Made by a program: the position numbers and the translations under genes. A DNA stretch of 64,000 bases from an uncultured Opitutales bacterium. Its GTDB lineage: Bacteria; Verrucomicrobiota; Verrucomicrobiia; Opitutales; Intestinicryptomonadaceae. The notes beneath the pieces are model-generated. The model worked only from the letters and a program-made list of their open reading frames with translations. It was not told the DNA's origin and did no database searches. Shown here one piece after another: positions 1-37,067 of the stretch. The DNA is taken from positions 2,130 through 66,129 of the forward strand of contig URJJ01000004.1 of assembly GCA_900548185.1 (NCBI GenBank). The letters run 5' to 3'. Each line of letters starts with the position of its first letter. Position 1 is the first letter of the stretch.

Positions 1-430
1 CGGCAAGTGCGTGCCGTGCAGGATGGGCACCCAGCATGCGCTCGCCATCCTTGAGCGCATCACTTCGGGCGAGGGCGAGCCGGAGGACATCGAGCGCCTC
101 GAAAAAATCTGCATGACGATGAAGCAGTCGTCGCTTTGCGGCCTGGGCCAGACGGCGCCCAACCCGATTCTTTCAACCCTGAGGTACTTCAAGGACGAAT
201 ATCTGGCCCACATAAACGAGAAGAGGTGCCCGGCGCACGTCTGCCCGGGGCTCGTCCGCTTTTCCATCGACCCGGAGAAGTGCGCGGGATGCACAATGTG
301 CTCGCGCGTGTGCCCGACCGGGGCCGCCCACGGCGAGAGGAAAAGCCCTCATTTAATAGACGCCGAAAAGTGCATATCGTGCTCGGCCTGCTACCAGGCA
401 TGCCGTTTCGGCGCGGTCATGCGAAGCTAA
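1..430 (+). CDS. C-terminal part (5'-truncated by window edge) of NuoF/HydB-like NADH-binding flavoprotein subunit ending in two 4Fe-4S ferredoxin motifs
   Basis: Translation shows the SLCGLGQTAPNPI motif typical of the NuoF 51-kDa family C-terminus. Two CxxCxxCxxxCP clusters follow (CAGCTMCSRVCP, CISCSACYQAC). The ORF is open to the window edge. Confidence 0.7.
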   Translation, partial: GKCVPCRMGTQHALAILERITSGEGEPEDIERLEKICMTMKQSSLCGLGQTAPNPILSTLRYFKDEYLAHINEKRCPAHVCPGLVRFSIDPEKCAGCTMCSRVCPTGAAHGERKSPHLIDAEKCISCSACYQACRFGAVMRS

Positions 431-454
431 CAACAGGCATTATTTCACACTACT

Positions 455-2881
455 ATGAGCAAGATTTATCTCACTATTGACGGGGTTAAGGTCGAGGCCG
501 AACAGGGCATGACCGTGCTTCAGGCCGCCAGAAATGCGGGCCTCTACATCCCGTCGCTGTGCGCCCACAAGGATTTGAGCCCGTACGGGGCATGCAGGCT
601 GTGCGTCGTCGAAATCGACAAGGTTCGCGGAACTCCGACCTCCTGCACGACTCCCGCCGCCGACGGCATGGTGGTCCGCACCGACACCGAACAGCTCAGG
701 ACCCAGCGCAGGCGCACCCTTGAGCTGATGATGAGCGGCCACCCCGCCGCATGCATGAGCTGCGACTCGCGCGAGGAGTGCGAAGTCGTCAAGCCCGAGT
801 CCTCCAAAAGCGGCGTGTCAACCCGCTGCGGCGCGTGCTCCAACCGCCCGGACTGCTCCCTGAGGAAGGTTACGCTCGGCAATTTCACGCGCGAAATGGG
901 CCTTCAGACCATTTACAGCCCCGAAAAAATCGAGCGCGGCGACCCGTTCATCGACCGCGACCACAACCTCTGCGTGCTCTGCGGAATCTGCTTCAGGGTG
1001 TGCGAAAAGGTCCATGAAGGCAGGGGCGCAATCGCCATAATAAACCGAGGCAAGAACGCCAAGGTGGCTTCTGCGTTCGACAAGAGCTGGAGCGTTGAGG
1101 AGTGCACATTCTGCGGGGCGTGCGTCGACGAATGCCCGACCGGATGCCTGACCGACAGGTGGTCGCGCTGGTACGGCAAGGAGGACAGGGTTTCCGAAGG
1201 CGTGTGCCGCCTCTGCCCTGAAAACTGCCGCATAAAAATAAAGACCAAGAACGGCAGGCTGATAGGGGTTGAAAAGGTCTCCCTGAACCCTGCGGATTCC
1301 CTCTGCGCCCTCGGCCGCTTCGGCTACGCGCAGATAGTGAACACCCCCGGGCGCCTCTCCCGCCCGTACGTGCGCCTGAACGGCGAGATGGTCCCCTCCG
1401 ACATCGAGGAGGTCTCCCGGCGCCTGCTTGAAATATTCAGGGGCGCCACCGGGCGCATGCTCATCGCAATCCCCGAAAACTTCTACTACGAGACGCGCCG
1501 CAACTGCCGCGCGCTGGCAAAGAAATTCGGGGCCGACTTCGTGGAGCTTGCCTTCGACGCGGAAAAGCTTCCGGAGGAAATAGCCGCGAAGGCGGCTTCC
1601 GGGGCCTACGGGGCCGCCCTCATCGCCGGGAACTACGTCGATGCGGAGCTGGCCGGCAAGCTCGGGCGCCTCGTCTGCTACGATTTCCTGCCATCCGAAG
1701 CCCAGAAGAAGGCGGAAGTCGTCATCGCCTCGACCCTGCTTGCGGAGGCTGAAGGCTCCACCGTGTTCCCGGACGGCACTGTTGTGGAGGAGGGCGCCGC
1801 AGTCAAAAAGCTCGACGGGCGCCTCTCGCTCAACTCGATATTCGCCCGCCTTTCGGAGCTCGCCCAGGTTGACGCGGCTTCGGGGGATTTCAAGGTGTCA
1901 ATGCGCGAATTCGCCTCCCCCAAAAAGCTTGGCAAGGCCGCAATCCCGGCCCGCTTCTACGGCCGCCTGACGGCGGACCTTGTCCCCGACCTCCAGGCTC
2001 TCGGCCTGCCGTTTACTCCGTCGGCCCCGCAGGACTCCAATTTCGTCCAGGGATTTGAGATTGTGGAAAAGAAGATGCTGGCGCCCAATTTCCACTCCAT
2101 AAAGATAAAGGCCCCCGAAATGGCGAAGTACGCCAAGCCGGGCCAGTTCGCCATCCTCATGGCCAACGTGAAAAGCGAGAGGTCCCCGTTTACAATCGCC
2201 GACTGGAATGCGGACGAGGGCTGGGTGCAGTTTGTCATAGAGGAGGTCGGCCGCTCCAGCGCCGAACTCGGCAGGCTCAAGACCGGGGACTTCATCGCAA
2301 ACGCAAGCGGCCCGCTCGGGACCCCGTTTGACTTTGAAAAGTTCAAGCCCGGCTCAAGCGCCCTGCTTCTCGGCGGGTGCTACGGAATTGCCGCCATCTA
2401 CCCGATTGCCCGCGAGCTGAAGAGGCGCGGCGTGAGGGTGTGCGCGGCGATAGAGGCTTCGACTGCGTTTCTAATCTACTTTGAGCGCGAGCTCCGCGCG
2501 GTCTGCGACGAGCTCGTGGTCATGACCCGCGACGGCACCAGGGGCCGCAAGGGCGGATGCTCCGACGTTTACGCCGAACGCGGGGCCGAGTTCGACGCGG
2601 CGGTGAGCGTCGGGTGCGTGTTCATGATGAAGCAGTGCTCTCGCTCTGCGGAAAAGACGGGAATTTCGCTCTGCGCGCTGAACCCCATCATGGTTGACGG
2701 CACGGGCATGTGCGGCGCCTGCCGTGTGAGCGTCGGGGGCGAGACGAAGTTCGCGTGCGTCGACGGCCCGTTCTTCGACCTCGGCAACGTGGATTTCGAC
2801 GAGCTGGCAAAGAGGCGCACCGCCTACGCCCTGCTTGAAATAGAGGCCATGCCGCGCCATTCGGGCGGATGCCGCAAATAA
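455..2881 (+). CDS. Fusion protein: NuoG/HydA-like N-terminal Fe-S module (2Fe-2S plus 4Fe-4S clusters and a truncated molybdopterin-oxidoreductase-like region) joined to a C-terminal PyrK/NfnA-like FAD/NAD(P)-binding domain with a 2Fe-2S cluster
   Basis: The N-terminus IDGVKVEAEQGMTVLQAARNAGLYIPSLCAHKDLSPYGACRLCVVEI is a NuoG-type 2Fe-2S ferredoxin. CVLCGICFRVCE and CTFCGACVDECP are 4Fe-4S motifs. The C-terminal ~280 aa (FAILMANVKSERSPFTIADW...CGACRVSVGGETKFACVDGPFF) resemble the dihydroorotate dehydrogenase electron-transfer subunit / sulfide dehydrogenase / NfnA. Confidence 0.75.
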   Translation: MSKIYLTIDGVKVEAEQGMTVLQAARNAGLYIPSLCAHKDLSPYGACRLCVVEIDKVRGTPTSCTTPAADGMVVRTDTEQLRTQRRRTLELMMSGHPAACMSCDSREECEVVKPESSKSGVSTRCGACSNRPDCSLRKVTLGNFTREMGLQTIYSPEKIERGDPFIDRDHNLCVLCGICFRVCEKVHEGRGAIAIINRGKNAKVASAFDKSWSVEECTFCGACVDECPTGCLTDRWSRWYGKEDRVSEGVCRLCPENCRIKIKTKNGRLIGVEKVSLNPADSLCALGRFGYAQIVNTPGRLSRPYVRLNGEMVPSDIEEVSRRLLEIFRGATGRMLIAIPENFYYETRRNCRALAKKFGADFVELAFDAEKLPEEIAAKAASGAYGAALIAGNYVDAELAGKLGRLVCYDFLPSEAQKKAEVVIASTLLAEAEGSTVFPDGTVVEEGAAVKKLDGRLSLNSIFARLSELAQVDAASGDFKVSMREFASPKKLGKAAIPARFYGRLTADLVPDLQALGLPFTPSAPQDSNFVQGFEIVEKKMLAPNFHSIKIKAPEMAKYAKPGQFAILMANVKSERSPFTIADWNADEGWVQFVIEEVGRSSAELGRLKTGDFIANASGPLGTPFDFEKFKPGSSALLLGGCYGIAAIYPIARELKRRGVRVCAAIEASTAFLIYFERELRAVCDELVVMTRDGTRGRKGGCSDVYAERGAEFDAAVSVGCVFMMKQCSRSAEKTGISLCALNPIMVDGTGMCGACRVSVGGETKFACVDGPFFDLGNVDFDELAKRRTAYALLEIEAMPRHSGGCRK

Positions 2882-2899
2882 TTTAGCGAGGTTTTTGCA

Positions 2900-4351
2900 A
2901 TGTCAGAAAGTACTCCGAAAAAACTCAAAGCCTCCGGCCTTCCGCGCCATCCGATGCCGGAGCAGAACCCCAAGAAGCGCGCGGCGAATTTCGAGGAAGT
3001 CCCCTACGGCTACTCGCTGGAAGTTGCAATGGAGGAGGCCACAAGGTGCCTGCGCTGCCCGAAGCCGCGCTGCGTGAAGGCCTGCCCGGTCAACATCAAC
3101 ATCCCGAATTTCATAGATTCGATAGCCCGCGGCGAAATAGCGGAAGCCGCCTCGAAACTCAAGAAGCAGAGCGCCCTTTCCGCCGTGTGCGGAAGGGTGT
3201 GCCCGCAGGAGATGCAGTGCGAGGGCTCGTGCATCCTTGGCATAAAGTCGAAGCCAGTCGCAATCGGCGCCCTTGAGCGTTTCGCGGCCGACTACGTGCG
3301 CCAGAACAACCTTGAGGAGCCGCCTGTCAAGGCGCCCCCCACGGGGAAGAAGGCGGCCGTCATCGGCTGCGGGCCGGCGGGGATTACCGCGGCGCTGGAG
3401 CTGGCTCTCGCGGGCCACGAGGTGGACGTATTCGAGGGCCTGCACTTCCCGGGCGGGGTGCTCATGTATGGCATCCCCCAGTTCAGGCTTCCGAAGGAGA
3501 TAGTCCTGCACGAGGTGAACAACTTGAAAAGCCTCGGGGTCAACATACACTTGAACCACCTCGTTGGCAAGATGCAGACGGTGGACGAGCTTCTCGCCTC
3601 CGGATACGACGCGGTCTTCATCGGTTCCGGCGCCGGCCTTCCGAACTTCATGGGCATTCCCGGTGAAAACAGCGTGGGCGTGTTCTCGGCGAACGAATTT
3701 CTTACTCGCTTCAACCTGATGAAGGCGTACGACTTCCCGAATTTCGGCACGACGCCCATCCGCGCAAAGCACATAGTTACGGTCGGCGGCGGCAACGTCG
3801 CCATGGACTCCGCGCGCACCGCGCTGAGGGCCGGCGCCAAATCGACGCTGGTCTACCGCAGGGCGCGCGAACAGATGCCGGCGCGTTCCGAGGAGGTCCA
3901 CCACGCGGAGCAGGAAGGCGTGAATTTCGAGCTTCTCACAGCCCCCAAGCGCGTCATCGCGGACGAAAACTCGCGCGTGGTAGGCCTTGAATGCGTGCGC
4001 ATGCAGCTCACCGAGCCCGACGAATCCGGAAGGCGCGGCGTAGTTGAAATTCCGGGCAGCGAATTTGTGCTGGAATGCGACGCCGTTGTGGCCGCCATCG
4101 GCAACCGACCGAACCCGCTCATCCCCATGACCTGCAAGAACCTGAAAACCACCCGCAAGGGGACGCTCGAGGTGAATCCGGACACGCTCCAGACTTCCAT
4201 GCCTGGGGTCTTTGCGGGCGGCGACGTCGTAAGCGGGGCGGCGACTGTCATAAGCGCCATGGGCCAGGCCAAGAAGGCTGCGGCGTCAATGAACAGGTAT
4301 CTGCGCGGGGAAACTCTCGATGAGCCGGCGTCGGATTCTGATAAGCAATGA
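2900..4351 (+). CDS. Glutamate synthase small-subunit-like NAD(P)H oxidoreductase (GltD/NfnB/SudA family)
   Basis: Two N-terminal Cys clusters are present (CLRCPKPRCVKACPV...CGRVCPQEMQCEGSC). A Rossmann motif AAVIGCGPAGITAA and FAD/NADPH-binding regions typical of GltD/NfnB follow. Confidence 0.85.
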   Translation: MSESTPKKLKASGLPRHPMPEQNPKKRAANFEEVPYGYSLEVAMEEATRCLRCPKPRCVKACPVNINIPNFIDSIARGEIAEAASKLKKQSALSAVCGRVCPQEMQCEGSCILGIKSKPVAIGALERFAADYVRQNNLEEPPVKAPPTGKKAAVIGCGPAGITAALELALAGHEVDVFEGLHFPGGVLMYGIPQFRLPKEIVLHEVNNLKSLGVNIHLNHLVGKMQTVDELLASGYDAVFIGSGAGLPNFMGIPGENSVGVFSANEFLTRFNLMKAYDFPNFGTTPIRAKHIVTVGGGNVAMDSARTALRAGAKSTLVYRRAREQMPARSEEVHHAEQEGVNFELLTAPKRVIADENSRVVGLECVRMQLTEPDESGRRGVVEIPGSEFVLECDAVVAAIGNRPNPLIPMTCKNLKTTRKGTLEVNPDTLQTSMPGVFAGGDVVSGAATVISAMGQAKKAAASMNRYLRGETLDEPASDSDKQ

Positions 4352-5093
4352 CGACGGGATAGGGTCCCCGTTCGCGGCGCGCTTTCTCGGCGCCTTCGCG
4401 GATGCGGGATTCGACGCCCTTGCGGTGTTTCCCGCGTCCGAGCAGAGCTGGATAGGGCGGGCGTACAGCCGCCACCGCAGGCTCAGCCTGGCGGACGCCG
4501 GCGCCATTTCGGGCGTCCGGGTTATGACGGTTGACGGAACGCCGTCGGACTGCGTGAATATCGCGCTCGGCCACCTCTTTGAAGGCGGCCTTCCCGACGC
4601 CGTGGTTTCCGGCATAAACATAGGCCAGAACATAGGGCTTCCGCTTTTGTGGAGTTCGGGGACGTTTGCGGCGGCCGCCGAAGGGGCCGGCTGGGGGCTG
4701 CCGTCCTTTGCGTTTTCCCTCCAGCTTGCGTCGGAGTATTACGAAATCTGCCGCATCCGCCATGCGCCCCCTCCGCCCGCCCTCGATGCGGTTTTGGGGG
4801 CGGCGTGCGCTCATGCGGCCTCATTTGTGCTGGAACGGCTGGATGCCGGGGAAGGCCGGGAGGGTAGCGTGCACAATGTAAACTACCCGCTCGACTATTG
4901 CGCATCGACCGAATTTTCCGCCTGCGAGCCCGCATCCGTCGGCATGAGGCCGCTTTACAGGAGGTCTCCTGACGGCGGTTTTGAATTCAAGTACTCCATA
5001 GGGGAGGGCGTTTCGCGTTCGGGGCTGCGCACAGACATGCAGTGCCTCGCCGAATCTGCGGCCTGTTTTTCGATTGTGAAAGTGGTGCCGTGA
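4320..5093 (+). CDS. surE: 5'/3'-nucleotidase SurE
   Basis: The N-terminus RILISNDDGIGSP and the VSGINIGQN motif are characteristic of SurE. The gene overlaps the end of the preceding gene by 32 nt. Confidence 0.85.
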   Translation: MSRRRILISNDDGIGSPFAARFLGAFADAGFDALAVFPASEQSWIGRAYSRHRRLSLADAGAISGVRVMTVDGTPSDCVNIALGHLFEGGLPDAVVSGINIGQNIGLPLLWSSGTFAAAAEGAGWGLPSFAFSLQLASEYYEICRIRHAPPPPALDAVLGAACAHAASFVLERLDAGEGREGSVHNVNYPLDYCASTEFSACEPASVGMRPLYRRSPDGGFEFKYSIGEGVSRSGLRTDMQCLAESAACFSIVKVVP

Positions 5094-5099
5094 GCCCCT

Positions 5100-5846
5100 T
5101 TGACGCATGAAATGGCGCGCGCCGTCCGCATCGCAGGCAAAATTCTCGACGCAGTGTTTCCGCGCCACTGCATCACCTGCGGCGCGCCGAATCCGCCTGG
5201 AAAGTTCAGGTACCTCTGCGGGGAGTGCGCGTCCGGCCCGTTCGCGCACCAGGCGGCCCGGTGCAGGCGGTGCGCGGAAATCGTCGGCGGGAGCGTCGAT
5301 GTTTCCGGATGCGCCAAGTGCGACGGGGCGGATTTCTTTTTCAGCGCAGCGAAGGTCGCATGCGAGTATGCGTCTTCGGGCCGCGACCTCGTCCTTGAGC
5401 TGAAGTATCGCGGGGGCCTGCATGTGGCGCGGGACATGGCGGCGATTTGTTCGGCGTCTGCCGGATTTGCGGAATATTTCCGGGGCGCCGTGCTCGTCCC
5501 CGTCCCGCTTCACCGCTCCAGGCTGCGCTCGAGGGGCTACAACCAAAGCGAGGTGCTCTGCCGGGAAATCGCGCGCGCAAATCCCGGCCTAGGAATCGAG
5601 GTTTCGAGGATTCTTGAGCGCAGAAAGGCGACCGGCACGCAGACTGCGCTGACGCGCGATGAAAGGGCGGCCAACGTCAGGGGCGCCTTCTCGCTCTCGG
5701 CAAGATGTTCGGCTTCAAGGGACGCTCATCTCATCGTGGTGGACGACGTAATGACAAGCGGGGCGACCTTGAACGAGTGCGCGAAGGTTCTCAGGCGGGC
5801 CGGATTTTCCAGTGTGCGCGTCTTTGCGTTTGCAAGGAGGTCGTAG
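5100..5846 (+). CDS. comF: ComF-family protein (phosphoribosyltransferase domain)
   Basis: An N-terminal Cys-rich zinc-finger-like region (CITCG...CGEC...CRRC) is followed by the C-terminal PRTase motif LIVVDDVMTSGATL. Confidence 0.8.
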   Translation: MTHEMARAVRIAGKILDAVFPRHCITCGAPNPPGKFRYLCGECASGPFAHQAARCRRCAEIVGGSVDVSGCAKCDGADFFFSAAKVACEYASSGRDLVLELKYRGGLHVARDMAAICSASAGFAEYFRGAVLVPVPLHRSRLRSRGYNQSEVLCREIARANPGLGIEVSRILERRKATGTQTALTRDERAANVRGAFSLSARCSASRDAHLIVVDDVMTSGATLNECAKVLRRAGFSSVRVFAFARRS

Positions 5847-5916
5847 CGGTTGCGCCTGCGGGGGGCTTTGGGATTTTTTCGTTGAAAACCGGGCGCGCGG
5901 CGGATTTAGTTTGGGA

Positions 5917-6312
5917 ATGAAGAAAATCTGTTCAGCCTTTGCCGTTTTGTGCTCGCTTTACCTTTGCGGATGCTCATCCATGTTCGACTCCTCAAAGAGG
6001 CATATGCTCCGCCTCGAAGATTCGTCCGCAGAGTGCAGGGTGGGGGATTTTGTCATCGTGAGCCTCGATTCAAACCCGACTACGGGGTACGATTGGACTC
6101 CCGTATCCTATGACGAATCCGTGCTTAAAATCGACGGGCGCAGGTTCATTCCGGCCCGCAGGGGCCTCGTGGGTTCCGGGGGGACGACTGAAATTTCGTT
6201 CTTGGCAGTCGGCGAAGGGAATTCAAAGATAAAGCTCGGCTATGCCCGCCCGTGGGAATCTAAGCCTGCGATAAAGGAAGCCAATTACGACGTAAAAGTC
6301 GTATCCGAATAG
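5917..6312 (+). CDS. Chagasin-family (MEROPS I42) cysteine-peptidase inhibitor, exported lipoprotein
   Basis: An internal ATG at 5917 gives MKKICSAFAVLCSLYLCGCSS, a signal peptide with a lipobox. The body contains NPTTGYDW and GSGGT motifs typical of chagasin/ICP. Confidence 0.7.
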   Translation: MKKICSAFAVLCSLYLCGCSSMFDSSKRHMLRLEDSSAECRVGDFVIVSLDSNPTTGYDWTPVSYDESVLKIDGRRFIPARRGLVGSGGTTEISFLAVGEGNSKIKLGYARPWESKPAIKEANYDVKVVSE

Positions 6313-6639
6313 TTTTGCAGGGCCTGCTGATTTGGCCGGAAAATGGCCGCGCAAAATAAGGGCGTTTTATGAACCCGAATTTGCGCGGCTTTTTTTGCTT
6401 CTTTTTTCGCGCTTCAATGCCGGGCGAAGATGAGGGGCGTAAAAGCAATTTTAGAAGTCGGATTCAGGAAGCTTCACCGCAGGCTTGCGGTTTTTTTAGC
6501 GGGATGCGGAGTGGGGGCATATGTTCTGCGGAGGGGCGGAAGCCCGCCTATTTGAGTGGGTATGTCATGCGATTTTTTATAATGCCTGGAATGGTGCCTG
6601 ATATGAGAGCGGCCGCAACCGCGAGCGCCTCGTGGCATT

Positions 6640-6980
6640 GCAAACCTCGCCACGGTAGAGTTTGCAACGCACCCGGACTATCCCTTCCGTCCCTAGGCAG
6701 ACGGTGTCCGCGCCGCGCGAAAAATATGACGCTCAAACTTCTTTTCAAAGCCCTTGCAAGTCCGTTGCAGAGGCTCTTTTTTTAATCCGGCGTGCGCGAT
6801 TGCGGGCTGGGCGCAAAACTCGAAGCTGGATGAAAAACATTTACAAATCTTACTTCATTTGAGGGTGTCGGCGCAAAAAGTTTCCGGAGTCAAATCCTGC
6901 TGCCAAATTTGCCCCAACGTCTTTAATTTCCCATTGTCCCCCGGCATTTCCAGTTTCAAATCCAATCTTTCAAACATCAT
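6640..6980 (+). repeat. Copy 1 of an AT-rich ~340 bp dispersed intergenic repeat (second copy at 37633-37975, same orientation); possible ncRNA or MITE
   Basis: Direct alignment by eye with 37633-37975 gives about 80% identity with small indels. The element begins with the hairpin ttgcaaacctcgccacggtagagtttgcaa. It is AT-rich relative to the flanking sequence. Confidence 0.6.
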
Positions 6981-7182
6981 TGGATTTGAAGCGCTCAGGC
7001 TGTCCGCGCGAATCGGGAGCTTCCGCCCTCTTAAAGCCATGTATGGCCGCCGCACTTTGCGGATGGGGTGGGATAACGCGGCCGCCTGCCTTTTGCGCGC
7101 GCCGGCATGTTTTTTCAAAGGCAAATTTTGGCGGCGCGCTTGTAAAACCAAAGCTGCGCCTTGCTCTGCCGCCGCATCGCGG

Positions 7183-7212
7183 CAAAAAAATGGGGGCGGA
7201 AAATTCCGCCCC
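7183..7212 (-). terminator. Rho-independent terminator downstream of ferritin gene (minus strand)
   Basis: On the minus strand the hairpin ggggcggaa-tt-ttccgcccc is followed by TTTTTTT. It lies about 70 nt after the ferritin stop. Confidence 0.55.
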
Positions 7213-7279
7213 GCAAGTTTTCGGAGTATGGCGTTATGCCGCAGCGTTCCCCGATACGCTTTGGAATGCTGCCCGTAGG

Positions 7280-7777
7280 CTATTCGCCGCGCTTTCCGGC
7301 CCAGTTGTTGACGCCGAAAATCAGATTCTTGTCGTCTCCGGCGTATTCCAAACCGCGCACGAAGGCGAGGGCCGTATGCTCTTCCTCCGCCTGCTCCTTC
7401 AAAAACCACGACATGAAATCGGCCGTGACCCAGTCCTTTTCGTCGTTTGCAAGTTCGTAGATTTTGGTTATCTGGGAGGTTACGAGCTGCTCGTGGGCGT
7501 AGGCTGCCTTGAAGGCTTCAAGAGGGCTTTCAAAAGAGTCTTTGGCGGGCTTTTTCACGGCGTCGGTGGCAAAGGGCGCGTCACGCTCCGAAATGAAGTC
7601 GTAAATTTTCATTGCGTGCTCCATCTCTTCCTTGGCCTGGAGGCGCATCCACTTTGAAAATCCCTGGTAGGGGGAACGCTTGAAAAACGCGCTCATCGCA
7701 AAATATATGTGCGAGGCGTAGAGTTCGTTGTAGAACTGTTCGTTTAGAAGTTTGAGGACGTTTGATGGTATTGTCAT
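7280..7777 (-). CDS. ftn: Non-heme ferritin
   Basis: 165 aa. Ferritin-like di-iron ligands and the overall fold signature are present (EEMEHAMKIYDFI, AYAHEQLVTSQ). The match to bacterial Ftn is strong. Confidence 0.9.
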   Translation of the reverse strand: MTIPSNVLKLLNEQFYNELYASHIYFAMSAFFKRSPYQGFSKWMRLQAKEEMEHAMKIYDFISERDAPFATDAVKKPAKDSFESPLEAFKAAYAHEQLVTSQITKIYELANDEKDWVTADFMSWFLKEQAEEEHTALAFVRGLEYAGDDKNLIFGVNNWAGKRGE

Positions 7778-8111: not shown

Positions 8112-8131
8112 AAGCTTTATTAAATGGCATT

Positions 8132-8208
8132 GCGCCCGTAGCTCAATTGGATAGAGCATCTGACTACGGATCAGAAGGTTACAGGTTCGACTCCTGTTGG
8201 GCGCGCCA
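8132..8208 (+). tRNA. tRNA-Arg (anticodon ACG)
   Basis: Manual cloverleaf. Acceptor GCGCCCG/TGGGCGC; D-arm GCTC-AATTGGATA-GAGC; anticodon stem TCTGA/TCAGA with loop CTACGGA (anticodon ACG); T-arm ACAGG-TTCGACT-CCTGT; encoded CCA. Confidence 0.9.
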
Positions 8209-8520
8209 TTTTTTTATTTTCTTAGCCCCGGATTTCGGGGCTTTTTTTGCGTCGTTTTCAAGCTCGGGGAGGGACGCGGCGGCGCAGGCGTCGGATGCGG
8301 CTTTGGCGCGTCCCGGCCGGAGCGGCATCTCGCGCGGCTTTGTCTGTGTGCATCCTGCCGAAATCCTGGCCTTCTTACGGAATGCGCGTTGGGGCTTGGC
8401 GGTCTTTAAGAGGCGTTTTATTCTTCTGCGCGGCGCCGCCGCCCGGCATGTGCGTTTGCGGATTTTCGCACTTGCGGGTTTTGGCACAGGCTTTTCGGGT
8501 ATTTTATGCAATACAAATAA

Positions 8521-8562
8521 TTGAAAAAAATGCTTGCGTCCCGGAATCGGCGTGGCAATATT
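8521..8562 (+). promoter_or_regulatory. Putative promoter for rpsR sharing the TTGAAAAAAATGCTTGC motif
   Basis: TTGAAAAAAATGCTTGCGT contains a -35 TTGCGT, then a 17-nt spacer and -10 AATATT. It lies 33 nt before the rpsR start. The 17-mer is identical to the one upstream of tRNA-Arg. Confidence 0.35.
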
Positions 8563-8594
8563 TCAATCTTTAAATTTAAAAACTGCAATTTAAC

Positions 8595-8777
8595 ATGTCA
8601 GAAGAACAGAAAAAGTCCGCTTTGAATCTTACGTTTTCCGATAAGGAAAGCCTCGAACGCTTCACCACCGAGACCGGCAAGATACTTCCCCGCAAGTTCA
8701 CGGGCCTCAGCGCCAAGGAACAGCGCCACGTGAAGAAGACCATCAAGCAGAGCCGCAATATGCTGCTGATGAAGTAG
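8595..8777 (+). CDS. rpsR: 30S ribosomal protein bS18 (short form)
   Basis: ETGKILPRKFTGLSAKEQRHVKKTIKQSRNM matches the conserved S18 core (GKIxPxRxTG...KxQRxLxxAIKxxR). Confidence 0.8.
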   Translation: MSEEQKKSALNLTFSDKESLERFTTETGKILPRKFTGLSAKEQRHVKKTIKQSRNMLLMK

Positions 8778-8846
8778 GGCTTTTGGGAATACCGTTTTTT
8801 ACCTTTCAGGCGGCTTCGGTCGCCTTTTGTTTTTTAGGGCAAGGCT

Positions 8847-9809
8847 GTGATTTACAAGGTCGGGACATGCTCGCCGTCGGATCCGGCGCTCAGGCTCGCC
8901 GTAGAAATAATACTCGGCGGGGGCATCGTCGCCGTGCCCACAGAAACCGTTTACGGCCTTGCCGCCAACGCCCTTGACGAAGCCGCGGTGCGGAAGGTGT
9001 TTCTCGCCAAGGGGCGCCCTTTCATAGATCCGCTCATCGCCCACGTCCCGGACTTTTCCGCGCTGGAAAAAATAGCGGTTCCAAACGGGAGCGCGCGGAG
9101 GCTCGCGGAGGCGTTCTGCCCGGGGCCGATAACATTCGTGCTTGAAAAGCGCGCGTGCGTGCCCGACGTGGTGAGCGCGGGCCGTCCCACAGTGGCTGTC
9201 CGCATCCCCTCCCACCCTGTAATGAGGGCTTTTATGGAAATGGCAGGCGTTCCGATTTCCGCCCCCAGCGCAAACCCGTTCGGGTATGTCAGCCCCACCC
9301 GCGCCGAGCATGTGGAGGCCCAGCTCGGCTCGAAGGTCGGCGCGGTGCTCGACGGCGGCCCGTGCGAATGCGGGGTGGAGTCCACCATAGTGATGCTTTC
9401 GGACGAGTCAAACCCGATGCTCCTGCGTCCGGGGCCGGTGCCGCGGAGCGAAATCGAACGAGTTCTCGGGCGCAGGCTGGCCGACCCGAAGGATAATAAT
9501 CCGGCCCATCCCCAGGCTCCGGGCATGTTGAAAACCCATTACAGCCCGCTGGCTTCGGTAGAGCTGTTTGACAAGCCCCGCAACTTCGGCGGCGGCTGCG
9601 CCGTAATTTACGCTTCTCGCCCGGCTTCTCCCGGTCCCGACGAATTCTGGCTCAGCGAATCCGGCGACGATGCGGAGGCGGCGCGCAACCTCTTTTCCCT
9701 GATGCGCGCCCTCGACGGAAAGTATTCTAAAATATTCTGTCAGCGTCTGGCTTCGGGAGCTTTGGCGGAAGCGGTAAACGACCGCCTCTCTCGCGCCGCA
9801 GCAAAGTAA
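8847..9809 (+). CDS. tsaC: L-threonylcarbamoyladenylate synthase (Sua5/YrdC family with C-terminal Sua5 domain)
   Basis: The YrdC motif VAVPTETVYGLAANA is present. A length of 320 aa is consistent with the Sua5-type two-domain form. Confidence 0.85.
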   Translation: MIYKVGTCSPSDPALRLAVEIILGGGIVAVPTETVYGLAANALDEAAVRKVFLAKGRPFIDPLIAHVPDFSALEKIAVPNGSARRLAEAFCPGPITFVLEKRACVPDVVSAGRPTVAVRIPSHPVMRAFMEMAGVPISAPSANPFGYVSPTRAEHVEAQLGSKVGAVLDGGPCECGVESTIVMLSDESNPMLLRPGPVPRSEIERVLGRRLADPKDNNPAHPQAPGMLKTHYSPLASVELFDKPRNFGGGCAVIYASRPASPGPDEFWLSESGDDAEAARNLFSLMRALDGKYSKIFCQRLASGALAEAVNDRLSRAAAK

Positions 9810-9810
9810 A

Positions 9811-9932
9811 CGTTCCGTTTAATCTAAGATGCTAACGCATCTTGGTACGGTGTGCGCCGCCGGGTCCGGGCGGCTATGGATTTATCTTACGCATTGCCTG
9901 GCGGCAATCGCTGGGTGGGTACAATCAGGAGT
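9811..9932 (+). repeat. Unit A of tandem structured intergenic repeat (candidate sRNA)
   Basis: Contains the perfect hairpin aagatgc-taac-gcatctt and a GC-rich segment gccgccgggtccgggcggc. It ends ...ggcaatcgctgggtgggtacaatcaggagt and is followed by agtcttttttt. About 90% identical to 10045-10140. Confidence 0.55.
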
Positions 9933-9989
9933 AAATTAGATAGTCTTTTTTTATAAGTAAGCGTTCCGCAAGCGTACCGTTTAACCTAA

Positions 9990-36977: not shown

Positions 36978-36996
36978 CACAAACAATAAAAAAAGA

Positions 36997-37067
36997 GGCG
37001 TGGGTCGGAATTGAACCGACGCATAAGGCTTTTGCAGAGCCTCGCCTTACCACTTGGCTACCACGCC
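36997..37067 (-). tRNA. tRNA-Cys (anticodon GCA)
   Basis: The reverse complement folds as a cloverleaf. Acceptor GGCGTGG/CCACGCC; D-arm GCC-AAGTGGTAA-GGC; anticodon stem AGGCT/AGCCT with loop CTGCAAA; T-arm GTCGG-TTCAATT-CCGAC. CCA is not encoded. Confidence 0.85.

Follow-up and report, generated by a model that had tools for sequence, protein, structure and literature searches.

The 64-kb window analysed here (64,000 nucleotides of contig URJJ01000004.1, positions 2,130 to 66,129, from an uncultured Opitutales bacterium) opens with the last three genes of a four-gene operon. The operon consists of a nuoE-like gene, a nuoF-like gene, a nuoG'-nfnS fusion and nfnL, and the products are here denoted E, F, GS and L. 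Sequence, structure prediction and conserved gene order show that it encodes a predicted four-subunit soluble Fe-S flavoprotein complex joining two bifurcating machineries, the Bfu core and a complete NfnSL module. The BfuA-like Fe-S 'wire' of the first and NfnS of the second are joined physically, in several lineages through gene fusion and elsewhere through strict synteny. The operon is an undescribed, conserved and fairly widespread combination of known modules, with an NAD(H) site that has been re-engineered throughout the family. Judging from the sequences, we consider it probable that the Bfu core wired to NfnSL acts as an NADH/NADPH/ferredoxin oxidoreductase in which NAD(H) reacts at BfuB and not at NfnS.

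Organization of the operon

The list of open reading frames (ORFs) of the window contains the three forward-strand frames on which a preliminary description of this DNA was based. Positions 2..430 encode the C-terminal 142 residues of F, a BfuB/HydB-like protein of the NuoF family. Positions 455..2881 encode GS (808 residues), a BfuA/NuoG-like Fe-S module followed by an NfnS/NfnA-type FAD/[2Fe-2S] domain, and positions 2900..4351 encode L (483 residues), an NfnB/NfnL-type NADPH-binding flavoprotein. The window is contained in a 109-kb source contig (L001), with window position 1 at L001 position 9547. There the complete F gene (616 residues) occupies 8126-9976, starting upstream of the window, and the remaining part of this NuoF-like gene is preceded by a NuoE-like gene of 152 residues, for which the preliminary description had suggested looking there.

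On the source contig the four genes are separated by 2-24 nucleotides (24 between F and GS, 18 between GS and L), and a promoter-like site with 10/12 matches lies ~65 nucleotides before the NuoE-like start. The gene preceding E encodes a methyltransferase, beyond which lie divergent helicase/nuclease genes. Translation of L was assigned to the ATG at 2900, with GAGG 8 nucleotides upstream. Automated gene callers start 18 codons later, giving 465 residues; the 18 extra N-terminal residues are kept in homologues and align with the N-terminus of T. maritima NfnB.

F and E form a Bfu-type core

F and E are of the predicted bifurcating type, carrying the published sequence markers of the BfuBC/HydBC core. 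The nine best matches of full-length F in the PDB are BfuB/HydB subunits of biochemically proven bifurcators (549-754 bits), including NiFe-HydABCSL, the NfnABC enzymes of C. saccharolyticus and T. sibiricus, StnB and HydB. The top match is 7t2r_B (754 bits, residues 25-613), followed by 9bov_B, 9n5u_B, 8oh5_B and 7q4v_B. Alignments to BfuB structures are full-length and score 706-754 bits. Scores against the non-bifurcating NuoF and FdsB do not exceed 415 bits; unlike F, these proteins are without the Bfu-specific C-terminal ferredoxin domain and the B2 site.

Pfam assigns Complex1_51K, NADH_4Fe-4S and two Fer4 motifs to F, the domain content of the Bfu type. PF10589 (NADH_4Fe-4S, E 2.6e-27) and both Fer4 motifs fall in the part of F inside the window, confirming the earlier description of a NuoF-like subunit with extra ferredoxin clusters. 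Within this segment lie the end of the B1 [4Fe-4S] motif, residues H..C....C of the B2/Zn site (nucleotides 206-247, forward strand) and, from nucleotide 281, the C-terminal 2x[4Fe-4S] ferredoxin domain (B3/B4). The B2 (Zn) site has been defined as Cys/Cys-or-Thr/His/Cys/Cys, with its His present in 1550/1558 BfuB sequences and absent from non-bifurcating homologues (Schut et al., PMC9304861). In F, C457, a Thr, H544, C550 and C555 align with C438, C476, H525, C531 and C536 of NiFe-Bfu and are kept in 11/11 orthologues, among which all Fe-S cysteines of F are conserved as well. The GAFMD-type residues and the GGPSG loop, both Bfu-specific loops of the FMN/NADH site (Xiao et al. 2025, PMC12018979), occur in F at residues 223 (GAFMD) and 416 (GGPSG).

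The N-terminal thioredoxin-like domain of F, a domain that in BfuB carries the B5 [2Fe-2S] cluster or Zn, gives a weak 2Fe-2S_thioredx match and has only three conserved cysteines (C33, C66, C70). In this it resembles NfnB of C. saccharolyticus, whose site binds Zn. E matches PF01257 with 163.5 bits, has NfnC and HydC as its best PDB matches, and keeps C78, C83, C119 and C123 of the NuoE/HydC [2Fe-2S] motif (C1 cluster).

GS fuses a BfuA-like Fe-S module to NfnS

The N-terminal module of GS is a succession of Fe-S motifs, all on the forward strand. Residues 1-84 (455..706) form a [2Fe-2S] ferredoxin domain with C36, C47, C50 and C64 (Fer2_4, E 1.9e-21), and residues 96-109 (740..781) a NuoG N5-type His-ligated [4Fe-4S] motif, H-x3-C-x2-C-x5-C (PF10588). 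An extra motif, T123-R-C125-x2-C128-x5-C134, follows at residues 123-134 (821..856). Residues 173-227 (971..1135) contain two CxxCxxCxxxC motifs, an Nqo3-type 2x[4Fe-4S] ferredoxin domain of the Fer4 family. The last motif, C251-x2-C254-x3-C258...C284 (residues 251-284, 1205..1306), is of the molybdopterin-oxidoreductase [4Fe-4S] type; its PF04879 match of 22.1 bits is just below the cut-off. Residues 1-300 have the motifs for the N-terminal [2Fe-2S] and several [4Fe-4S] clusters by which a BfuA connects a third module to BfuBC, and all Fe-S cysteines of GS are invariant across 120 full-length homologues.

Residues 301-530 (1355..2044) comprise a degenerate, truncated molybdopterin-oxidoreductase-like alpha/beta domain and a linker. 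Mean identity among homologues is 30% with almost no invariant positions; the segment matches nothing in Pfam (neither PF00384 nor PF01568) and holds no conserved cofactor residues. AlphaFold2 predicts it with a pLDDT >90, and homologues of GS match PF00384/Fdh-alpha, the longer variants holding a near-complete NuoG/Fdh-like domain; the truncated molybdopterin-like region that had been proposed for the middle gene is therefore real. The segment is probably a scaffold, and since homologues form a length series of 636, 810 and 1080 residues, we read it as a decaying molybdopterin domain.

The C-terminal residues 531-808 (2045..2878) are an NfnS/NfnA-type domain, here called the S domain. Residues 534-803 match NCBIfam NF004862 with 288.8 bits (cut-off 220), and DHODB_Fe-S_bind is also found, so that the profile matches agree with the earlier view of a NuoG/HydA-type Fe-S module fused to a PyrK/NfnA-type domain. 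The S domain matches Pyrococcus furiosus NfnS (5jca_S, E 4.5e-66) and T. maritima NfnA (4ylf_A, E 8.6e-58), with ~43% identity to both. Foldseek places the predicted S domain on 5jca_S with a TM score of 0.87 and aligns the N-terminal ~530 residues with NuoG/HydA-type subunits. The AlphaFold2 model of GS has a pLDDT of 86 and a pTM of 0.83, the latter indicating that the S domain is arranged in a defined way relative to the BfuA-like part.

The fusion is not the product of a frameshift or a faulty assembly that ran two genes together, a possibility raised in the preliminary description. The identical 808-residue ORF occurs on 8 contigs from several independent assemblies, and >120 full-length homologues share 45-72% identity with it and keep the Fe-S cysteines invariant. 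Cluster look-up returned no database names for the exact 808-residue protein.

An additional cysteine motif in the BfuA-like module

The TRCxxCx5C motif is a tandem copy of the preceding NuoG-type CxxCx5C, and its three cysteines are invariant in 120/120 homologues. It may bind an additional Fe-S cluster; no fourth ligand for the cysteine trio was identified. The solved structures aligned (FdsA, NuoG, HydA and NiFe-Bfu A) do not contain it. We considered whether the motif might be an adaptation specific to the fusion, perhaps forming a new cluster with C642 and C721 of the S domain, and dropped this idea because 129/135 of the closest non-fusion NuoG-like relatives have it, including members of gene clusters that contain only E, F and G (EFG-only). 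It marks a large clade of NuoG/Fdh-like BfuA proteins.

Alignment, together with published data (PMC7483475), places the motif at the position where a GltD domain is inserted in StnC/Nfn-BfuA. Kremp et al. (PMC7483475) attributed Cys-rich motifs to that insertion, and the GS motif adjoins them. Its location at the StnC insertion site is relevant to how Stn-type enzymes arose.

The NAD(H) site of the S domain is remodelled family-wide

The cofactor motifs of the S domain are intact. The FAD strand ERSPFT lies at nucleotides 2177-2194 and the Asp-ligated [2Fe-2S] motif DGTGMCGACR-x10-C at 2696-2758; among fused homologues ERxPxT is present in 119/120 and DGTGMCGxCRx10C in 120/120. We compared the NAD(H) site, in GS numbering, among 120 canonical NfnA sequences, 120 fused proteins and 37 unfused Bfu-linked S proteins. 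The canonical sequences are related to T. maritima NfnA, which has been crystallised in complex with NADH. The three groups do not differ in the FAD and [2Fe-2S] motifs. In place of the canonical NAD(H) motifs (GGGVG, an acidic residue following the LG(A/F)R strand, GP.IMM), the whole family has GGCYG, IEAS..Y/F and GC.FMM, which in GS are GGCYG at nucleotides 2372-2386, IEAS at 2450-2461 and GCVFMM at 2612-2629, all on the forward strand.

The replacements are nearly uniform. Gly 642 of the canonical set (120 sequences) is Cys in 120 fused and 34 unfused sequences; Val 643 (120) is Tyr in 120 fused and Tyr or Phe in 35 unfused; Gly 667 (119) is Glu in 120 and Glu or Asp in 34; Asp or Glu at 672 (112) is Tyr, Phe or His in 114 and Tyr or Phe in 27; Pro 721 (120) is Cys in 120 and 34; and Ile or Val at 723 (119) is Phe in 119 and Phe or Tyr in 33. 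The canonical residues are found in P. furiosus NfnI, in NfnA of Coriobacteriia and in the 'pattern C' fusions. In the FNR superfamily a glycine-rich loop serves the pyrophosphate, an acidic residue the ribose hydroxyls, and the 'CGP' position lies beside the nicotinamide. Because these positions are replaced, we infer that the S domain no longer binds NAD(H) in the canonical way, and that the site appears to have been re-purposed.

L is an NfnL-type subunit

The product of the third gene in the window, previously described as an NfnB/GltD-like NADPH-binding subunit, turned out to be a genuine NfnB/NfnL. It matches TIGR01316 with 587 bits (cut-off 472) and Fer4_20 with E 1e-40, and scores 525 bits against T. 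maritima NfnB (4ylf_B) and 474 bits against P. furiosus NfnL (5jca_L), whereas the GltD domains of Stn/Nfn-BfuA reach 275-321 bits. Scores against GltD structures are also lower than those against NfnB, and none of the loci examined contains a gene for a GltB-like glutamate synthase partner.

The first [4Fe-4S] motif of L, RCLRCPKPRCVKACPV, is encoded at nucleotides 3044-3091 and the second, GRVCPQEMQC...GALER with Glu126, at 3191-3280; the Arg at FAD N5 lies in GIPQFRLP (3470-3493) and the NADPH-type VYRR at 3851-3862, all on the forward strand. These NfnL hallmarks (RCx2Cx4Cx3CPV, GRVCPQExQCx3C...Gx2ER with the Glu, the N5 Arg and the NADPH site) are present in 11/11 orthologues of L. Glu126, within 'LERF', is the ligand of the FAD-proximal [4Fe-4S] cluster; the corresponding residue of StnC is the strictly conserved Lys170 ('LKRF').

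The gene order is conserved across phyla

Taking one genome per species, we found the order E-F-GS-L in every sufficiently long Opitutales/Verrucomicrobiota locus (>20 genomes), including those of the cultured Intestinicryptomonas porci and Puniceicoccaceae Marseille-Q1082. Within Opitutales conservation is highest for F and L (72-86%) and lower for GS (56-66%). The same order occurs on an unrelated 353-kb metagenome contig and in Desulfonatronum lacustre, where a HicAB pair lies between F and GS. A metagenome-assembled genome (MAG) of Desulfobulbus keeps E-F-GS on a contig that ends ~260 nucleotides past GS, before any L. The flanking genes vary, with surE in Opitutales and gatB in Desulfonatronum. 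The D. lacustre insertion is a HicB/HicA-type antitoxin/toxin pair (L031, 7446-7912) inside the otherwise conserved operon.

The full-length fusion forms a narrow family: an exhaustive search of 1.84 billion representatives returned about four clusters at 50% identity. Among its variants, the 1080-residue form, with its near-complete NuoG/Fdh-like domain, belongs to a complete E-F-GS-L operon; the 636-residue form has almost no middle domain, is preceded by E and F, and stands at the end of its contig. In the locus of the 1080-residue variant a second NuoE-like/NuoF-like pair directly follows the NfnL gene (L035, 8069-9993). A separate protein of 1229 residues from a JGI metagenome (P0463) combines an Fdh-like alpha part, with Molybdopterin and Molydop_binding domains, and an NfnS-type DHODB_Fe-S_bind domain; by its domains it may be a catalytic formate dehydrogenase (FDH) fused to NfnS.

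The fused form belongs to a larger family whose members often encode G and S separately; the unfused order E-F-G-S-L is frequent in metagenomes from sediments. Outside the fusions, the N-terminal half of GS has its closest relatives in NuoG-like proteins of ~780 residues. One such locus reads NuoE, NuoF, NuoG-like, a separate NfnA/S gene (272 residues) and NfnB/L; in a second, on a short contig, the NuoG-like gene is again followed by a separate S gene of 272 residues. We then scanned metagenome contigs with the NuoG-like alignment and kept 80 loci, 64 of them informative. S directly follows G in 41/64; L was seen in 26 of these 41, and the contig ended in 10. E and F lie upstream of G in 42/52 loci with room for them. 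In the 23 loci that lack S, G is longer (907-946 residues in the four inspected) and unrelated genes come after it. MAGs of Desulfobacterales, Thermoplasmatota, Chloroflexota and Nitrospirota carry the unfused form, with G annotated as 'molybdopterin-dependent oxidoreductase' or 'formate dehydrogenase alpha'. One EFG-only locus without an NfnS/NfnL match (L108, 9826-10572) has, ~1 kb past G, an ORF of 248 residues with an FNR/PyrK-type-like start (…YKPGQYCTVGRD), which could encode another flavoprotein partner for the BfuA clade.

Comparison with known bifurcating systems

The modules found here had earlier been read as the parts list of an Nfn- or Stn-like transhydrogenase in an uncharacterised fused arrangement. 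That reading was borne out and can be narrowed to a BfuBC core with a complete NfnSL, neither of the Stn type nor a plain NfnAB.

The likeness to NfnSL/NfnAB comprises, in L, the scores against NfnB/NfnL together with the two Fe-S motifs, the Glu ligand, the Arg at N5 and the NADPH site and, in the S domain, its identity and fold, the FAD strand and the Asp-ligated [2Fe-2S] motif. Nfn, however, is a self-contained heterodimer or an S-L fusion, whereas here S is fused to a 530-residue BfuA/NuoG-like Fe-S module, BfuB and BfuC homologues are added, and the canonical NfnA NAD(H)-site motifs are replaced. We rejected filing the operon under plain NfnAB on account of these Bfu partners and the lost NAD-site motifs.

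With Stn/NfnABC (Nfn-Bfu, Type 1 Bfu; S. ovata 8OH5, C. saccharolyticus 9BOV, T. sibiricus 9N5U) the operon shares the BfuBC-type core (711-744 bits for F), a BfuA-like Fe-S subunit whose Fdh/NuoG-like domain is degenerate, plus a GltD-family NADPH flavoprotein as third module. The GltD domain of Stn, though, lies inside BfuA, is Lys-ligated and non-bifurcating, and has no NfnA homologue beside it; here L is separate and Glu-ligated, a full NfnS domain is present, and only a 15-residue Cys motif stands at the insertion site. Filing as Stn/NfnABC was rejected, the GltD insertion, the Lys ligand and the absence of NfnA all failing to apply.

P. furiosus NfnII/Xfn (5VJ7) is alike in that its S subunit deviates in the NAD-binding domain; it was reported to be without NAD+-dependent activity. 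It differs in being a stand-alone heterodimer without a Bfu partner and in having GAYTG in place of GGCYG, and the S domain of GS scores higher against NfnI S (227 bits) than against NfnII S (156 bits). The N-terminal 300 residues of GS align best with FdsA and BfuA/NuoG, recalling Fdh-Bfu/FDH (FdsABG, 6TG9) and NuoEFG, but here the molybdopterin domain (230 residues) is truncated and unconserved and Molydop_binding is missing. Bam-Bfu (BamBCDEFGHI; BfuABC with HdrA) and the HdrA-NfnB fusions of ANME-1 are likewise predicted to be complexes of two bifurcating modules; their partners are HdrA and a tungsten benzoyl-CoA reductase, and neither joins BfuBC with a complete NfnSL.

In the literature, Stn has been described as without an NfnA homologue and Nfn as without a HydBC homologue (Kumar et al. 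2023), and NfnSL and NfnABC have been called unrelated, organisms typically having one or the other (Xiao et al. 2025). A review of Nfn lists four gene-fusion patterns, A-D, none involving NuoG or NuoEF and none matching the arrangement of GS. The types of the Bfu classification are Rub, Nuo, Nfn, F420, NiFe/Mbh, FeFe, Fdh, Por, Codh, Wor and Bam, with no NfnSL-linked type. In the searchable, open-access literature we found no description of a Bfu-NfnSL hybrid; unfused forms possibly stand as 'Fdh-Bfu' in the supplementary table of the Bfu classification.

Proposed mechanism and alternative explanations

The complex would interconvert NADPH, NADH and ferredoxin, as Nfn does. E is predicted to hold a [2Fe-2S] cluster and F the FMN, the NADH site, [4Fe-4S] clusters and the Zn/B2 site. 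The S domain would hold a-FAD and the Asp-ligated [2Fe-2S] cluster, and L the b-FAD, the NADPH site and two [4Fe-4S] clusters, one of them Glu-ligated. The Bfu core and NfnSL would be tied covalently, because the BfuA-like Fe-S wire and NfnS are one polypeptide. NADP(H) would react at the b-FAD of L, where the hallmarks of the bifurcating NfnL flavin site are all kept, and the [4Fe-4S] pair of L would serve ferredoxin. The other branch would run from b-FAD through the [2Fe-2S] cluster to a-FAD in the S domain. With the canonical NAD(H)-binding motifs gone from the S domain, NAD+ is probably not reduced by a-FAD, which more likely passes electrons one at a time into the Fe-S chain of the BfuA-like part to which S is fused. 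From there electrons would reach the FMN/flavobicluster of F, where NAD(H) would react, replacing the lost S site. F might also react with a second ferredoxin, F and E being of the bifurcating type. The physiological direction would most likely be NADPH formation from reduced ferredoxin and NADH.

Some observations weigh against this proposal. When the E' values of PMC9304861 Table 1 are used (potentials -380, -280 and -500 mV), two bifurcations in series, fully coupled and running in the NADPH-oxidising direction (4 NADPH -> 1 NADH + 6 Fd-, where Fd is ferredoxin) are calculated to be uphill, implying that the enzyme runs towards NADPH, or that BfuBC does not bifurcate here, or that the wiring differs. 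The extra Cys motif at the site of the Stn GltD insertion hints that the low-potential branch of L, and not a-FAD, might feed the BfuA chain. Finally, the glycine-rich loop of the S domain is altered (GGCYG), not deleted, and the loss of NAD(H) binding is deduced from motif replacement only.

It is unlikely, though conceivable, that the b-FAD of NfnL and the FMN 'flavobicluster' of BfuBC are both active bifurcation sites, differing in mechanism and working in series with a non-canonical stoichiometry, a-FAD of the remodelled S domain having changed from an NAD(H) site into a pure one-electron relay to an Fe-S wire. Were this so, the complex could catalyse, for example, NADH + 6 Fd(red) + 4 NADP+ -> 4 NADPH, with ~3 electrons from reduced ferredoxin per NADH electron, so that a very reduced NADPH pool could be held or a less reduced ferredoxin pool used.

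A rival reading is a wiring like that of Stn, in which L would dock on the BfuA-like part, its two [4Fe-4S] clusters would feed a cluster at the extra Cys motif and the Fe-S chain to BfuBC, BfuBC would be the only bifurcation site, and S would be a structural anchor or a second site, for a high-potential acceptor. TRCxxCx5C occupies the exact position of the GltD insertion in Stn-type BfuA proteins, F and E have all the Bfu markers, and the homologous [4Fe-4S] pair of Stn is the route to the BfuA chain. Yet L keeps the NfnL-type Glu and not the Lys of Stn and scores far closer to NfnB/NfnL than to Stn-type GltD, and the strictly conserved FAD and [2Fe-2S] motifs of the S domain point to a working redox branch. 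TRCxxCx5C also occurs in EFG-only clusters without S or L, and is thus not an adaptation for docking L as such. We find this wiring doubtful.

A remodelled S pocket that binds some other high-potential substrate, as has been proposed for Pyrococcus NfnII/Xfn, would make the complex an NADPH/NADH/ferredoxin-linked reductase instead of a transhydrogenase. The new invariant residues C642, Y643, E667, C721 and F723 do line the canonical nicotinamide site and are under strong purifying selection. On the other hand, no substrate-related neighbour gene is conserved across phyla (the neighbours being surE in Opitutales and gatB in Desulfonatronum), and the fused BfuA-like wire and the NADH-binding BfuB already provide the a-FAD branch with a partner, which leaves such a reductase improbable.

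Although hydrogenases and FDHs are commonly served by NuoEFG-like modules, and the closest EFG-only relatives have a full Fdh-like G (~915 residues) named formate dehydrogenase alpha in databases, we rejected as very improbable that the operon encodes a diaphorase module of a hydrogenase or FDH encoded elsewhere, or two unrelated enzymes side by side: the upstream part of the operon on the source contig, where the preliminary description had allowed for one, contains no hydrogenase or FDH catalytic subunit, none lies within 7-10 kb in any of ~30 fused loci, the molybdopterin-like domain is degenerate and nearly absent from the 636-residue variant, and the fusion of G and S in one gene excludes a chance adjacency.

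Neighbouring genes

A surE gene (5'/3'-nucleotidase; 4320-5093, forward strand) shares 32 nucleotides with the 3' end of the NfnL gene. It directly follows L in most Opitutales loci, not in Desulfobacterota, and for this reason may be co-transcribed with the redox operon in Opitutales. Directly after surE lies a ComF-like gene with a double zinc ribbon and a phosphoribosyltransferase domain (5112-5846, forward strand). The first forward-strand terminator-like hairpin past the operon is at ~6476-6491, after the gene that follows the ComF-like gene.

Between positions 5500 and 9000 of the window the GC content falls from about 0.63 to 0.51-0.56 and the non-coding gaps are unusually long. This stretch contains a chagasin-like Inhibitor_I42 gene (5911-6312), an ORF of 174 residues without a family match (6754-7278), a ferritin gene on the minus strand (7280-7777) and tRNA-Arg(ACG) (8132-8208). 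Rfam and tRNA scans of the 64-kb window returned two tRNAs only, this one and tRNA-Cys(GCA) at 36995-37067 on the minus strand.

Implications

Members of the family are found in Opitutales of the gut, in alkaliphilic sulfate reducers and in many lineages from sediments. Its parts are annotated as 'dihydroorotate dehydrogenase-like', 'glutamate synthase' and 'formate dehydrogenase alpha', and because current annotation misnames them in this way, models of the NADPH/ferredoxin balance of the host organisms are likely to be wrong or incomplete. The operon family is a natural test case for the coupling of flavin-only and flavin/Fe-S bifurcation modules, with cultured hosts in Desulfonatronum spp., Intestinicryptomonas porci and Puniceicoccaceae Marseille-Q1082.

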